A stretch of 32,000 bases of DNA from Candidatus Thorarchaeota archaeon (GTDB taxonomy: Archaea > Asgardarchaeota > Heimdallarchaeia > Hodarchaeales > Hodarchaeaceae). The stretch's first letter is position 1; every line of letters starts with the position of its first letter. The notes below the pieces were generated by a model. It saw only the letters and a list, made by a program, of their open reading frames with translations. It searched no databases and was not told the DNA's origin. The stretch covers positions 1 to 32,000 of the forward strand of contig JBHLRO010000029.1 in NCBI GenBank assembly GCA_048882505.1, in the 5' to 3' direction. Shown piece by piece: positions 4,243 to 8,975 of this stretch. Position numbers and translations under genes: made by a program.

Positions 4243-5448
4243 TTGAGTAAATACAAGTTACTTATGAAATCTATTGTCTTCAGTACCCGATCACGGCGGC
4301 GATTCTTCACATTCGTGATTGTATTTTCCATTCTTTCGGGAGCCACAATCATCCTCTTGAGTTATTTCGATAATTTCTCACGAGAAGGTCTATTGGTGCA
4401 CAGAGGAGTTGTAATAAATACTGAAGGATTAGATACGATTACTCTTGACCAGGTCCAAACAGATCTCGGAGTAAATGATGGCCAACCAGTCACGGGGGCG
4501 GAAATCGTCATTTTCTTCAAATATGTAAACTTCGGCTCCAATTTGAGGATTTTCAGCCTAAATTCAAATTATCCCTGGGCGTTTAACGCTCTAAATCCAA
4601 ACCATTTGGTGAGCGGTAGCTTCCCAACAGGTAAGTATGAAGCTCTAGTTTCTGAAGATGCTTTGGTTCCACTGAACGATACTGAGGGGGCTATCAACAT
4701 TTACACGAAACCCGTGATAGGTACCAAACTCACTATCGGTGCAAGTACGGATTCTGATTTTGAGTTGACGGTGTCTGGAATTTTTCGGAAGCCTGTAACC
4801 CCAATAATCAGCTCAGATAGTCGAGAATGGATACTGCTTACAGAGGGAGCCTTTGCAGAGCTCGTAGGAGGACAACATCTCGCTTTGGATTCCAGTGAAA
4901 TTGGTGTGCTCTCAGTAACAATTATCGCAGGAGGAGACATATTTGGAGGAGAGGCTTACAGCAATGTGGATGCTTTGGCAACCACCTTTCAGGAAGAAAT
5001 AACTGGAAATCCGCATTTATACGATATTGATTTTGTTGAAAAAATCGCGAAAGATAGTACTCGAGATAGTGCAATAATTTCCCTTCTCTTTGGTTTATTT
5101 GGAACCTTCATGGTGAGTACGTTGTATGCTTACCTGATAACCCGCTTTCGCAGACGAGAAGTCGCCATATTGAAGGCCATGGGTTATTCAAAATGGGATG
5201 TTAGAACAGTTGTTCTGACGGAAATCCTAGTGGTAGCAATAACGGGATTTCTGATAGGATTACTCGCGATTCAGGCATACTTTTGGAACCCCCTGGGACG
5301 TGAAACGTCATATTTTTATCTAATTGCCTATTCTTCAGCAACGTTTCTTGCTTTCGGCGCAGTCGTTCTATCTACCGTACCTGGTTTCATCTTGATCTCG
5401 GCCCGAATTCTCTCCGTTCGTCCCATAGAAATTTTTAGACAGAAATAA
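4243..5448 (+). CDS. FtsX/MacB-like ABC permease
   Basis: One N-terminal TM, a large extracytoplasmic domain, then RRREVAILKAMG...E and three C-terminal TMs; ends LSVRPIEIFR. TTG start. Confidence 0.85.
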   Translation: MSKYKLLMKSIVFSTRSRRRFFTFVIVFSILSGATIILLSYFDNFSREGLLVHRGVVINTEGLDTITLDQVQTDLGVNDGQPVTGAEIVIFFKYVNFGSNLRIFSLNSNYPWAFNALNPNHLVSGSFPTGKYEALVSEDALVPLNDTEGAINIYTKPVIGTKLTIGASTDSDFELTVSGIFRKPVTPIISSDSREWILLTEGAFAELVGGQHLALDSSEIGVLSVTIIAGGDIFGGEAYSNVDALATTFQEEITGNPHLYDIDFVEKIAKDSTRDSAIISLLFGLFGTFMVSTLYAYLITRFRRREVAILKAMGYSKWDVRTVVLTEILVVAITGFLIGLLAIQAYFWNPLGRETSYFYLIAYSSATFLAFGAVVLSTVPGFILISARILSVRPIEIFRQK

Positions 5449-5462
5449 GGTGAAAGTGGCTA

Positions 5463-6143
5463 ATGAGCAATTCAAATATTTTAATTGAAGCAAAGGATCT
5501 TACAAAAGAGTACATGCGTGGAAGAAATGAGGTTGTTATTGCCCTTAACGATATAGACCTCAAAATCCCCAAGGGAAAACTTGTGATGGTAACAGGTCCC
5601 TCAGGTTCAGGGAAAAGTACTCTACTCAATGTTCTATCGGGTTTGGATAAGCCTACCGAAGGAAAAATCCTCTATGAAGATGAAAACATTGCAGATTGGG
5701 AGGAGGAACGTATATCGCAATTTAGACAGCAAAATATTGGTTTTATATTTCAAAATTGGGAATTAATCCGCACTATGAAAGCCCTCGAAAATATTGAATC
5801 TCCCCTGTACCCTCTTAAAATCAAAGGTAAGGACATTCGGACACGTGCGGCCGCTCTGCTTAGACAAGTCGGATTATGGGACAAGGCAGATAACTATCCC
5901 GATGAGTTAAGCGGGGGTGAGCAGCAAAGAGTAGGGATAGCCCGAGCTTTGGTGGGAAAACCTCGGATTATCTTCGCAGATGAACCTACTGGAAATCTAG
6001 ATCAAGATAATGCCACTTCCACAATGCGCCTGCTTAAAAGTTTCACAAAACGGGACACTGCTATTCTAGTGGTCACACATAACGAGGAACTAAAAAAATA
6101 CGCTGATGAATCCCATCAATTGTCATCGGGCAGATTTGTCTAA
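5463..6143 (+). CDS. LolD/MacB-type ABC ATP-binding protein
   Basis: [37 protein letters not shown]; SD AGGTGA upstream; 14 nt after the permease. Confidence 0.95.
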
Positions 6144-6193: not shown

Positions 6194-6946
6194 ATGCTCG
6201 AAACCGAGAGACAGGGTGGGGTGGGAATCATTAGGCTTAGTCGAGGAATTACTAATGCCATCAATTCCGAATTGGTAGCTGAATTAACTGCCGCCCTTGA
6301 AGATATGATATTAAATGATTCAGAGATCAAAGTTATCCTCCTTACAAGCAGTAACGACAAGTTTTTTGCGATTGGCTTTGATTTACCAGAAGTCCTAGAG
6401 TTATCGCGTTCGGAATTCCAGGAATTTTATCAAGGATTCAATAAGTTAACCTTATTACTGTACAAGACACCTAAACCAACTGTGGCCGCACTGACAGGTC
6501 ACGCTACGGCTGGAGGTTGTATTTTGGCTCTCTGCTGTGACTATCGCATTATTGGACAAGGACGTACCTTAATGGGGTTGAATGAAGTCAAATTGGGAGT
6601 TCCAGTCCCCTACCCTGGAGACGTCATCCTCCGTGATTTGGTGGGGACTCGTCATGCCCGTGAAATCATGGAAATCGGAGAGTTCTATCAACCTGACAAG
6701 CTTTTAGAACTGGGGATGGTAGATGAAATTGTACCAAAAGCCGAGGTCAGAGCAAAGGCTCTAGAAAAAGCGCATGAGTACCTTTCATTACCGTCTCCAG
6801 CTTTTCAAGTTATTAAGAAAAATCGGATTCAACCAGTTATGGATCGTATCCAAGAGAAGTTGGCCGTTAAGGAACAGCAATTTCTCGCTTGTTGGTTCTC
6901 TGAAGAGACTCAATCTACTTTGAGGAAAGCAATGGAAAAATTCTAA
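6194..6946 (+). CDS. Crotonase-superfamily protein, probable delta3,delta2-enoyl-CoA isomerase
   Basis: FAIGFDL, GHATAGGCILALCCDYRI and GLNEVKLG; only the second crotonase Glu is kept. SD GGAGGT upstream. Confidence 0.88.
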   Translation: MLETERQGGVGIIRLSRGITNAINSELVAELTAALEDMILNDSEIKVILLTSSNDKFFAIGFDLPEVLELSRSEFQEFYQGFNKLTLLLYKTPKPTVAALTGHATAGGCILALCCDYRIIGQGRTLMGLNEVKLGVPVPYPGDVILRDLVGTRHAREIMEIGEFYQPDKLLELGMVDEIVPKAEVRAKALEKAHEYLSLPSPAFQVIKKNRIQPVMDRIQEKLAVKEQQFLACWFSEETQSTLRKAMEKF

Positions 6947-6967: not shown

Positions 6968-7762
6968 CTAGAATCCACTTACTATGGCGTCTGCGAGTTT
7001 ATCAATATACTGTGTGAACGGATGATCAGGATACTTAAGGGAAAAGATCGTTCGTGATCCCTCACGAGCTACTTCACAATAACATGGGATACTGGTAATT
7101 ACTCGCATTCTCATCTCAGATTCGATAGTGGCTTGAAACTCATTCACCAATTTTAGGTCCGTTTCGCTCCAAACACCATGTTCAGGCGGACAGGTTTCGG
7201 CCACAACACGGTTCAGTACCACGTAATTTTTGGCATCAAGTAACGAGTAAAGTTGGGTTACCATACTCTTTGTTCCGCTGATATCAAAATCATCGGCCTT
7301 TAAAACGAGACATGTGGCATCGGAGATGACCAACCCATCAATACTCTCCATTTGTACCCCTGGACTTGTGTCAATTATTGTATAGTCAAATCCAGACTCA
7401 GTTAGCTCGTCTCTGAGCCGGAGAATGCGTTTCAAGGACCTTTGTCGTTGTTTCTTGTCCGCTCGCACGATTTCTCCCATTTTACGAAAGTCCGTGGATG
7501 CAAAAGCTGCGTATAATGGAATCTTGTACTCCTCTTCGAACGACTTCAAAATGTCCTCGCCTGTTAGATCAGGGTCAAAGAGTAAGTCATTGATCGTGAC
7601 ATCTGTGTCAATTCCGCATAGGGTCTGAAGATTGGGCCCTCGGAAATCAAGATCCAAGATACATGTCTTGTGCCCCTGGCGAGCAAGAATAGTTGCTAAG
7701 TTGGCACTTAGATGGGTTTTTCCTGTTCCCCCTTTATAGCTGTGGAAAGCAATAATCTTCAT
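6968..7762 (-). CDS. ParA/MinD-family ATPase
   Basis: Deviant Walker A KGGTGKT, switch I DLDFRGP, Walker B IIDTSPG, VLNRV. Confidence 0.9.
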   Translation of the reverse strand: MKIIAFHSYKGGTGKTHLSANLATILARQGHKTCILDLDFRGPNLQTLCGIDTDVTINDLLFDPDLTGEDILKSFEEEYKIPLYAAFASTDFRKMGEIVRADKKQRQRSLKRILRLRDELTESGFDYTIIDTSPGVQMESIDGLVISDATCLVLKADDFDISGTKSMVTQLYSLLDAKNYVVLNRVVAETCPPEHGVWSETDLKLVNEFQATIESEMRMRVITSIPCYCEVAREGSRTIFSLKYPDHPFTQYIDKLADAIVSGF

Positions 7763-7806
7763 TAATCACACCTTAATCGAATTCTAATCCTTAATGTGGG
7801 CAAAAA

Positions 7807-8487
7807 TTAAATTTCCTCTTCATCTGATATCCTGATTGCCATCCGCGTTTTTTTCATGGCATGATTTAAATCATCATCAGAACCGTTGCCATTTTCTCTA
7901 GATCCCTCTCCGGAATAGAAAAGCACTTTCTTTCCCTCTCTCATTTTAGAAATTAGTCCTTTATCAGTAAGTTGGTTGAGATAATCGGATTCGGTCGGCC
8001 TTGATTTACCCGTTCTAGCGGCGACCTCTTGCGCTGTTACACCGCGTTCAGCCTTCATAACAGTCCCGTAGGTACCTCGTAAGTGACGGGGTACCTGCAT
8101 TAGTATATCCAATCCTGTTGATATCTTCGAGGAATTGGTAGACGATCCGGGCGTCTTGAGCGACACTTTCTCAATCATCCGACGGTTCACTTTGGCCATA
8201 TGTTTTATTTCTCTAATGTCTGCGAAGATTCCTTTGATCTCCCCATGAATTCCCGTAATTAATACCTCGATTGACGTGCGGGTCTGCTGTAACGCGTTAT
8301 TAACCTCCTCACGTACCTCTTGTAACTCTTTCTTGAGAGCATTATATAATTCATCAGGAATGGGTTTGTCTTTTCGATCCGCGTTTGTTCCATCCGGGGA
8401 ATCCATAAACCCAAAACCTAAATCATCTGGAGAGTATTCAACCTTATTTATTTTCCTTAAGGAAAATCGATCTCCAAATTTCGGCAC
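7807..8487 (-). CDS. Coiled-coil plus C-terminal winged helix-turn-helix DNA-binding protein
   Basis: Heptad-like LYNALKKELQEVREEVNNALQQ region; wHTH VTAQEVAARTGKSRPTESDYLNQLTDKGLISKMREGKKVLFY. GTG start with GGTG SD. Confidence 0.8.
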   Translation of the reverse strand: MPKFGDRFSLRKINKVEYSPDDLGFGFMDSPDGTNADRKDKPIPDELYNALKKELQEVREEVNNALQQTRTSIEVLITGIHGEIKGIFADIREIKHMAKVNRRMIEKVSLKTPGSSTNSSKISTGLDILMQVPRHLRGTYGTVMKAERGVTAQEVAARTGKSRPTESDYLNQLTDKGLISKMREGKKVLFYSGEGSRENGNGSDDDLNHAMKKTRMAIRISDEEEI

Positions 8488-8593
8488 TTATGACACCACG
8501 AAAATTCCAACCGATAAAATAAAAGTTTTAAATCGGCGAACATCTAGAGCCGCCCTTATTTACCCAGTACTATCCGTAAACGAGACTGTTTCG

Positions 8594-8857
8594 CTAGTTC
8601 AGGGCGTAATAATGAGACCGTAGATCTCGAAGGTCGGGTACTCTTCGTACGAGGGCATCTTCGATCAAAATCTTTAAGGCGTATCTAATTGTTCGGTTAC
8701 TTAACGTGGTGTGATTACCGATTTCTTGTGGCTTAAGGGCGCCATTTACTTTTAAAAGGTAGTACACTTCCCGTGCAGATTTGGGAAGATGCGTAATCCG
8801 AGTATCATCATCATCAAGTAGTTGATTTCCGAGCTCATCTCTTGAATCAATCGCCAT
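8594..8857 (-). CDS. Small archaeal winged-helix (MarR/ArsR-like) protein
   Basis: 87 aa; LPKSAREVYYLLKVNGALKPQEI...LSNRTIRYALKILIEDALVRRVPDLRDLRSHYY. GGAG SD upstream. Confidence 0.8.
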   Translation of the reverse strand: MAIDSRDELGNQLLDDDDTRITHLPKSAREVYYLLKVNGALKPQEIGNHTTLSNRTIRYALKILIEDALVRRVPDLRDLRSHYYALN

Positions 8858-8881: not shown

Positions 8882-8975
8882 TTGTTGATGATTTGATGAT
8901 AGGGATTTAAAAACCTTCCTCTTATCTTATTTCTCACCGAATACTCCGATCTATGGCAATTATCTTGTTGATGAT
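8882..8975. repeat. Direct repeats in the wHTH/ParA cassette promoter
   Basis: TTGTTGATGAT at 8882-8892 and 8965-8975; its core TTGATGAT is repeated in tandem at 8885-8892 and 8893-8900. Confidence 0.6.
8906..8913 (-). promoter_or_regulatory. TATA box of the wHTH-wHTH-ParA cassette
   Basis: Minus strand reads TTTTTAAA, preceded by purine-rich GAGGAAGG, about 50 nt upstream of ATG 8857. Confidence 0.55.

Follow-up and report, generated by a model that had tools for sequence, protein, structure and literature searches.

The closest described counterpart of the locus analysed here is the 'ParA-wHTH system', which was described computationally in a recent preprint (Li, Burroughs and Aravind, bioRxiv 10.64898/2026.10.19.760177, 22 Oct 2026). 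In this mostly archaeal system a ParA gene is coupled to at least one gene for a rapidly evolving winged helix-turn-helix (wHTH) protein that begins with an elongated N-terminal helix; in variants of the system the wHTH is fused to V4R or profilin/longin-like domains. The preprint assigns the system to the ConB2 branch of ParA proteins, which abounds in systems with nuclease, TIR or toxin-antitoxin partners and is marked by an arginine that replaces a Walker A lysine and by a PG motif; it draws an analogy with ParA-HeH, one subtype of which is antiphage, and hypothesizes, without experiment, that ParA-wHTH intercepts and coats invader DNA. Here we describe a three-gene module in a 32,000-nucleotide (nt) stretch of Asgard archaeal DNA (the window), which belongs to contig C29 of a genome (G000) of 4.3 Mb and 94.6% completeness whose near relatives carry the labels Hodarchaeota or Heimdallarchaeota metagenome-assembled genomes. 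The module encodes a small wHTH protein, a middle protein that joins a coiled coil to a wHTH domain, and a ParA/MinD-superfamily ATPase (Table 1); we put at roughly 60% the probability that it represents the ParA-wHTH system on the chromosome, with a lineage-specific gene for a regulator added to the pair.

As in the preprint's system, the gene before ParA here encodes a protein with a long N-terminal helix followed by a wHTH domain, and the pair is conserved; the named relatives are archaeal, and the longin-like plus wHTH partners found among them correspond to the preprint's 'profilin-like' variant. A PG motif also follows the Walker B aspartate, as in ConB2, and is invariant here (DTSPG). 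An earlier note on this DNA, made from the sequence alone, had suggested that the module may be undescribed, which does not hold, as the pairing already has a name; the note had also allowed that it might prove to be described with another function, and this is half true, the role given in the preprint (anti-invader immunity) being itself a hypothesis. The preprint does not mention Asgard archaea in its text, nor does it describe a separate small wHTH protein with a heptad operator or the CxC and PxH motifs of the ATPase. The partner taken whole is fast-evolving here, yet its wHTH head is conserved; neither this conserved head nor a stable, non-defence neighbourhood is described in that text, and both sit uneasily with the immune hypothesis.

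The three open reading frames (ORFs) lie in the same orientation on the minus strand with gaps of 106 and 44 nt, as the earlier note had stated, and the module is single-copy in the window's genome. For the middle gene a longer and a shorter form were compared. The longer frame stays open in close relatives; all more distant relatives begin the protein at the residue matching M28, and the 27 codons before M28 hold three non-synonymous changes against one synonymous change by comparison with the nearest genome. The 199-amino acid (aa) protein is therefore the more likely product, in which case the first intergenic gap is 187 nt. Residues of the middle protein are numbered below from M28. Against Pfam and NCBIfam the first two proteins gave sub-threshold wHTH matches only (MarR, TrmB, ArsR and Lrs14); the ATPase gave clear Pfam matches and fell far under the NCBIfam cut-offs for MinD, ParA, Mrp and BcsQ.

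Table 1. The module and its promoter elements (window positions).
Feature	Position	Strand	Basis
Small wHTH protein, 87 aa, likely module repressor	8594..8857	-	ORF; sub-threshold MarR/ArsR matches
Coiled-coil plus wHTH protein, 'PwHTH1-like' adaptor, 226 aa (GTG 8487)	7807..8487	-	ORF; model
Middle gene, likelier form (ATG 8406, 199 aa)	..8406	-	Start = M28; starts of relatives
ParA/MinD-superfamily ATPase, 264 aa	6968..7762	-	Pfam AAA_31, ParA, CbiA
TATA box TTTTTAAA of promoter P1	8913..8906	-	Read directly; same position in all orthologous loci
Putative operator, ATCATCAA(C) twice in tandem	8900..8885, extending to 8882	-	Begins 4 nt after the TATA box
Upstream motif copy ATCATCAACAA (minus strand)	8965..8975	-	Exact 11-nt direct repeat of 8882-8892
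TATA-like box of probable second promoter P2	8526..8534	-	Between the small wHTH and coiled-coil wHTH genes

The ATPase is very strongly constrained, with a ratio of non-synonymous to synonymous substitution rates (dN/dS) of 0.016 relative to the nearest genome, the comparison used for all dN/dS values given here. Its deviant Walker A motif is intact (KGGTGKT), and in a family alignment of 33 members the motifs HSYKGGTGKT, DxD, DTSPG, C227xC229 and P245xH247 are invariant, as are K10 and K15, the signature lysine, the P-loop, the DxD of switch I and the Walker B aspartate. The model of the ATPase has a predicted local distance difference test (pLDDT) score of 91.5, and its best folds are FlhG, archaeal MinD, FleN, MinD and Soj; overall the protein is closer to MinD and FlhG than to Soj-type ParA. 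It shares its deviant Walker A motif, approximate size and fold with the archaeal MinD proteins of P. furiosus (1G3Q) and A. fulgidus (1HYQ); unlike these, it scores 58 bits against a cut-off of 202 for minD_arch and 47 against 213 for minD_bact, and it has no C-terminal membrane-targeting extension, the model ending with the last helix of the core (residues 248-263), as the earlier note had supposed. A sandwich dimer is predicted from the fold matches to MinD and Soj dimers.

Profile alignments were made to solved MinD, Soj and ApbC chains. As we read the family alignment, C227 of the IPCYC motif takes the place of the DNA-binding arginine of Soj (motif IPR, R189-type) and the IPED motif of MinD. 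CxC and PxH are invariant from the Asgard ATPases to those of Bathyarchaeia and Nitrososphaera and may together form a metal or redox site; the invariant CxC motif of this ATPase family is new here.

In its model the middle protein has a disordered N-terminus, a helix of about 65-66 residues (18-83), a linker, a canonical wHTH domain (98-165) and a disordered tail (168-199) that is acidic with a short basic patch; the model bears out the coiled-coil/wHTH protein with a disordered N-terminus and a tail that the earlier note had drawn from the sequence. Fold matches of the wHTH domain are generic (ArsR, MarR and Lrs14), and an ESM Atlas feature search with the middle protein returned archaeal clusters at 0.90 without names and nothing usable. 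Within the family the signature TGKSRPxESDYLNQL is invariant. Conservation is distributed very unevenly along the chain: the protein is 33-44% identical within the genus, versus 81-86% for the ATPase, with 22-32% in coil, linker and tail (32% in the coil), 60% in the wHTH domain and 86% in the recognition helix, which is still 58% identical to other phyla. The dN/dS values tell the same story (0.24 overall, 0.41 for the coil and 0.06 for the wHTH), and the ratio is below 1 in every region compared; fast evolution is confined to the partner's coil and tail.

Binding of the middle protein to the ATPase was assessed by complex prediction with two ATPase chains, two ATP and one partner chain, taking the median of three runs. 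The score was 0.58, against 0.00 for the best control, with at least 62% of contacts in agreement between runs and a partner pLDDT of at least 64. Of 80 solved complexes 58 reached the pass mark, as did two of 110 mismatched pairs, and passes at 0.60 or under comprised seven of the 80 solved complexes together with both passing mismatches. Binding of ATPase and partner, which the earlier note had asked about, is in this way weakly supported computationally; an interface was not returned.

In every genus locus, and also in locus L031 from a second Hodarchaeales family, the small wHTH protein is encoded before the pair. Its orthologues are 56-94% identical to it (56-73% in the genus apart from the nearest genome) and its dN/dS is 0.07. 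An hhalign comparison of its wHTH with that of the middle protein gave a weak alignment (E 1.7e-4, probability 49%).

The promoter of this first gene, P1, has its TATA box about 50 nt before the ATG, and the tandem ATCATCAA units that follow lie over the expected transcription start and read as TGTTGAT heptads on the other strand; the ATCATCAACAA copy stands 60 nt upstream. The earlier note had seen direct repeats in the promoter, and these are a shared feature of the locus: GTTGAT or its complement ATCAAC occurs at least twice in each of 12 non-redundant orthologous promoters, with 36 copies in total. In an unbiased count over the 12 promoters GTTGAT was the top 6-mer, and none of 1000 shuffles equalled its total, so that the repeats exceed chance, although the 12 promoters come from related genomes and are hence not independent. 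In all 12 the TATA box leads directly into two to five copies of (T)GTTGAT(G), direct or inverted, with a spacing of 7-11 nt, and heptads are also present in the more distant locus L031. Such a conserved heptad array directly after a TATA box points to a dedicated repressor. Bathyarchaeial pairs share the recognition helix of the middle protein, lack the small orthologue and carry a different conserved inverted repeat; the small wHTH protein is therefore the likely heptad binder.

In most members of the genus the gap before the middle gene also contains a TATA-like box, followed there by one to four ATCAAC motifs. Of the single TATA box proposed in the earlier note, the box at P1 stands, but this second TATA-like box (P2) was found in the window as well, and because relatives have the same motif behind it a single transcription unit is not certain; we rejected it as a settled description of the locus. 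The heptad array at P1, mostly repeated before the second gene, is new here.

Taking these observations together with the preprint, the proposed member of the ParA-wHTH system may work as follows. The phylogenetic footprint suggests that the 87-aa wHTH protein would bind the TGTTGAT heptads after the TATA box of its own promoter and so keep the module repressed, and that in most relatives it would also bind the same motif at the second promoter, before the pair. The middle protein would dimerise through its 65-residue helix and present two wHTH heads to DNA, as its model and conserved recognition helix suggest, and is predicted to bind the ATP-bound sandwich dimer of the ATPase, whose catalytic residues are intact. 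By analogy with the ParA, MinD and FleN switches, ATP hydrolysis would then govern the assembly and release of the DNA-protein complex. We read this complex as an accessory, tightly controlled, DNA-directed ATPase switch.

Several points weigh against assigning the locus to the ParA-wHTH system in this form. The Walker A arginine given for ConB2 in the preprint is absent, KGGTGKT being found in 33 of 33 aligned members; RGGTGKS occurs in two of 59 ATPases that adjoin the same partner family in metagenome loci. The complex prediction is a weak pass that came without an interface. The recognition helix of the middle protein contains a glutamate and an aspartate (ESDYLNQL), unusual for DNA reading, and might contact the ATPase instead of DNA. 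The operator is shorter in the window than in relatives and the P2 motif is degenerate there, while better arrays in the same genome precede other genes, so the regulator may not be dedicated to the module. Every mechanistic step beyond the gene content, including which of the two wHTH proteins binds the heptads, is one that we infer.

The trio co-occurs in the same order in 15 of 22 genus genomes and is truncated by contig ends in two more, and the core pair extends beyond the genus, which answers the question of gene linkage raised in the earlier note. In the nearest genome, G016, identity is 99% for the ATPase, 94% for the small protein and 90% for the middle protein. No copy of the module was detected in G009, an assembly of one contig that is 96% complete, nor in four less complete genus genomes. 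On the downstream side nearly all genus relatives have the same convergent genes for an ABC ATPase and an FtsX-like permease, and the upstream side varies; in the window, as in seven other lineages examined, metabolic or transport genes surround it. The module has no gene for an effector, and PADLOC gave generic P-loop and wHTH matches only. In the closed genome G015 no orc1/cdc6 gene is closer than 500 kb to the module, and in the window's genome it is not on the contigs that bear them. The genomic behaviour of the module looks more like that of a stable cellular function than of a defence island, and the context fits a defence island and an origin-linked chromosome partition system equally poorly.

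The convergent permease and ABC ATPase pair (4243-6143 in the window) co-occurs with the module across the genus, and the ABC ATPase was not found in the three module-less genus genomes checked (G009, G018 and G021), a pattern that fits shared ancestry and a functional link alike. In the window an enoyl-CoA hydratase gene (6194-6946) lies between the ATPase and this transporter; it is limited to G000 and its nearest relative, and elsewhere in the genus the transporter directly follows the ATPase.

Outside the genus, a coil-wHTH gene stands directly before a related ATPase gene in Thorarchaeota (L029), the second Hodarchaeales family (L031), Bathyarchaeia (L033 and L141) and at L140; L031 also has the small wHTH gene and heptads, and one relative, in Nitrososphaera, stands alone. 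All named relatives are archaeal (Hod-, Heimdall- and Thorarchaeota, Bathyarchaeia and Nitrososphaera). The signature ESDYLNQ retrieved 80 metagenome loci, of which 66 offer at least 400 nt of room; in 57 of these 66 an ATPase gene lies at -10 to +82 nt, mostly at 13 nt, and after dereplication 12 of 20 clusters show the pair. A profile of the middle protein matched 542 clusters (50% identity) at E<=1e-10, most of them proteins of 100-150 aa with a short coil and a wHTH domain. ATPase matches at E<=1e-40 were found in 15 of 201 evenly sampled Asgard genomes. In viral contigs relatives were at most 30% identical over part of the ATPase only, and in plasmid and phage collections the middle protein had no match and the ATPase had only generic MinD/ParA matches at up to 32% identity. 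The family is widespread and strongly constrained, and has so far been explained by a single hypothesis.

That hypothesis, immunity, is the best placed of the alternative functions, and we regard it as somewhat unlikely for this locus. It would have the fast-evolving wHTH protein sense foreign DNA and the ParA protein multimerise on it and block its replication or segregation, with the small wHTH protein keeping the system off until needed. What speaks for it, besides the placing of ParA-wHTH in ConB2 and the ParA-HeH analogy in the preprint (bioRxiv 10.64898/2026.10.19.760177), is the patchy spread of the module, which is missing from five of the 22 genus genomes as searched and sparse among Asgard genomes at large, together with the relaxed constraint on the partner's coil; tight repression would also suit a costly system. 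The same rates count the other way once they are divided by region, however, since it is the DNA-reading head that is conserved and dN/dS stays under 1 throughout. The lack of an effector gene, the generic PADLOC result and the metabolic and transport neighbours argue against immunity too, and the module keeps the same chromosomal place even though species of the genus differ by about 17% in the ATPase, unlike the turnover of defence islands.

Because of this genomic context we lean slightly towards a role in the cell's own service, either DNA or cargo positioning or the control of a regulator, over the interception of invader DNA, and we hold this preference tentatively. The data make the immune hypothesis testable by providing an operator, a likely repressor, a conserved head to set against a variable coil and tail, and the CxC/PxH site. 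If the immune hypothesis holds, the module would be an archaeal ParA defence that lacks an effector; should it fail, the lineage nearest eukaryotes may have a new positioning system here. To our knowledge, no Asgard ParA-type system has been studied, and we know of no established account of DNA organisation or defence in these archaea.

Partition or positioning of DNA in the manner of pNOB8 or type Ib plasmid systems is the next possibility, and an improbable one; here the small wHTH protein would mark an iteron-like centromere, the adaptor would stimulate the ATPase and the ATPase would move DNA or cargo. The earlier note had matched the trio with aspA-parB-parA of pNOB8, and the parallel does extend to gene order (small wHTH DNA binder, adaptor, Walker-type ATPase) and to the DNA sites upstream (PMC5120986). 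The match stops there: no AspA chain appeared among the Protein Data Bank (PDB) sequence matches, even with a profile at E<=10, and neither sequence nor fold links the proteins to AspA or to the ParB of pNOB8. That ParB consists of ParB-N and a C-terminal histone-like fold, the adaptor here of a coil and a wHTH domain, and pNOB8 is a Sulfolobus plasmid whereas the module is chromosomal. The disordered ends of the partner and the basic patch in its acidic tail would suit such a partition system, as would the predicted, if weakly supported, binding of the ATPase.

The 7-nt repeat arrays at the operon promoters, spaced by 7-11 nt, recall the heptad iterons of omega on plasmid pSM19035. Omega is a small ribbon-helix-helix (RHH) repressor that acts on 7-nt repeats, direct or inverted, at several promoters including that of the ParA-type protein delta, and it serves as both regulator and centromere binder for delta; it stimulates delta itself, is plasmid-borne and has no coiled-coil adaptor. 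The module here is wHTH-based, unlike omega-delta, and does have such an adaptor. Moreover, the arrays are short (two to five copies), are degenerate in the window's genome and are at their best before unrelated genes, and the bare motif is no more than mildly over-represented genome-wide (256 occurrences of GTTGATGA against about 168 expected), so there is no dispersed centromere signal. Among the fold matches of the ATPase, delta (PDB 2OZE) ranks 43rd.

Further evidence against partition comes from the genome itself. The earlier note had noted the absence of a ParB domain and of minE, and neither ParB_N nor MinE was found in the module or the whole 94.6%-complete genome; MinC was not searched for. 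The module resembles ParABS in the signature-lysine deviant Walker A motif of its ATPase and is unlike it in having no ParB_N/Srx partner and no Soj-type arginine, the invariant cysteine taking its position, and in that searches of plasmid, phage and viral collections turned up no relatives beyond the generic or partial ATPase matches given above. For the chromosome segregation suggested in the earlier note we found no specific evidence: the closed genome G009 does without the module as far as our searches show, and the distance from orc1/cdc6 in G015 is equally hard to reconcile with it.

SegAB, which serves chromosome segregation in Sulfolobales, places, like the present locus, an archaeal ParA-type ATPase beside a DNA-binding partner that is not ParB, site-specific in the case of SegAB (PMC8682754, PMC12284271); SegB is, however, an RHH protein encoded after segA, and here wHTH partners without similarity to AspA, ParB or SegB precede the ATPase. 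In Haloferax the archaeal ParA-like pair HpaAB positions DNA with a novel partner, and its deviant Walker A ATPase has a size and fold similar to those of the ATPase here; we rejected HpaAB as a relative on the grounds that HpaB is an RHH protein and HpaA of the bacterial ParA/MipZ type (PMC13722703). SegAB, SegC, HpaAB and pNOB8 were all excluded in this way, their partners being RHH or ParB-like. It is nonetheless conceivable, at odds we consider low, that the trio positions DNA or cargo for the cell itself, with the two wHTH proteins replacing ParB (one as the heptad marker and one as the coiled-coil adaptor) and the ATPase gated by a metal or redox site at its CxC and histidine residues. 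Were this true, it would join SegAB and HpaAB as the third type of archaeal system in which a ParA protein segregates or positions its cargo, and would lie in the closest archaeal relatives of eukaryotes.

A transcriptional switch resembling FleN-FleQ, in which the ATPase would alter the promoter activity of a coiled-coil wHTH factor according to ATP or to a signal sensed by CxC and histidine, is likewise doubtful. The best folds of the ATPase include FlhG and FleN, which are MinD-type ATPases that act on a transcription factor in the control of bacterial flagellar number (PDB 5J1J, 7EJW and 8P53), and a DNA-binding partner, predicted for the module, is common to both cases; FleN, MinD and Soj match about equally well, however, and FleQ is an AAA+ enhancer-binding protein, unlike the coiled-coil wHTH protein here, which has no flagellar or archaellum context. 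Both partners have the wHTH domain of the ArsR/MarR/Lrs14 kind, but the middle protein has no known target regulon, and a long coiled coil with disordered tails is atypical of simple regulators. The heptad operator before three other genes in the window's genome and the conserved inverted repeat between two TATA-like boxes in the two-gene Bathyarchaeial loci would fit a regulator, and CxC with PxH could be its metal or redox sensor.

An Mrp/NBP35-type Fe-S carrier does not fit, as the ATPase reaches 33-47 bits with the ApbC and MrpORP models, whose cut-offs are 348-450, the CxC falls on '...PLHISL' of the ApbC alignment and not on its CxxC, and a true Mrp is encoded on contig C22 of the same genome.

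Tandem heptad arrays are confined to the module in G007 and G015. In the window's genome the module's own arrays are short, and perfect three-copy arrays in 11-nt phase precede three other genes: the sites C1:174560-174590, C3:11453-11483 and C5:18299-18320 each have three TGTTGATGA repeats behind a TATA box, the one on C5 being the palindromic ATCAACAC-TGTTGAT. The genes behind these arrays encode, in the same order, a 215-aa secreted protein, a 151-aa protein that belongs to no family and is weakly longin-like in its pattern, and a member of DUF362. Together the three arrays resemble a small regulon built on the operator of the module. The 151-aa protein compared with a longin-like plus wHTH protein gave a BLASTP E value of 0.11, which is a lead only.

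Several observations concern the surroundings of the related loci. In Bathyarchaeia outside the two-gene loci a gene for a 98-aa HTH_45 wHTH protein lies just upstream of the pair (L033:3150-3446 and L141:5148-5444), an analogous trio with an unrelated small wHTH protein. At the metagenome loci L057-L126 a conserved inverted repeat, CTACA(C/T)ATCTACA ... TGTGT(T)TGTGTAG, lies 40-120 nt upstream of the coil-wHTH gene; the Bathyarchaeial repeat sits between two TATA-like boxes, and the two-gene loci there have large secreted-protein genes on both flanks. In L029 (1312-2292) and L031 (1140-1694) the module has a divergent gene for an Arf-like small GTPase on its upstream side, an adjacency that may be due to chance, Asgard genomes being GTPase-rich.

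Among more distant Asgard ATPases (about 36% identity; L041-L048) the next gene encodes a protein of about 202 aa with a longin-like N-terminus, a call made on the N-terminal sequence pattern where Pfam gave no match, and a C-terminal wHTH domain related to that of the middle protein. The window's genome itself contains two further ParA-like ATPases with the motif LSHKGGVGKT, about 28% identical, at C3:64683-66220 (L137:1184-2721) and C13:3263-4740 (L138:1264-2741), each followed by a protein of 182 or 211 aa whose N-terminal half is longin/roadblock-like and whose C-terminal half resembles a wHTH domain. Among the longin-like plus wHTH proteins of L041-L048 and of this genome, two are matched by the profile of the middle protein at E 1e-6. 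Given these two pairs, G000 has three ParA plus wHTH modules of two architectures.

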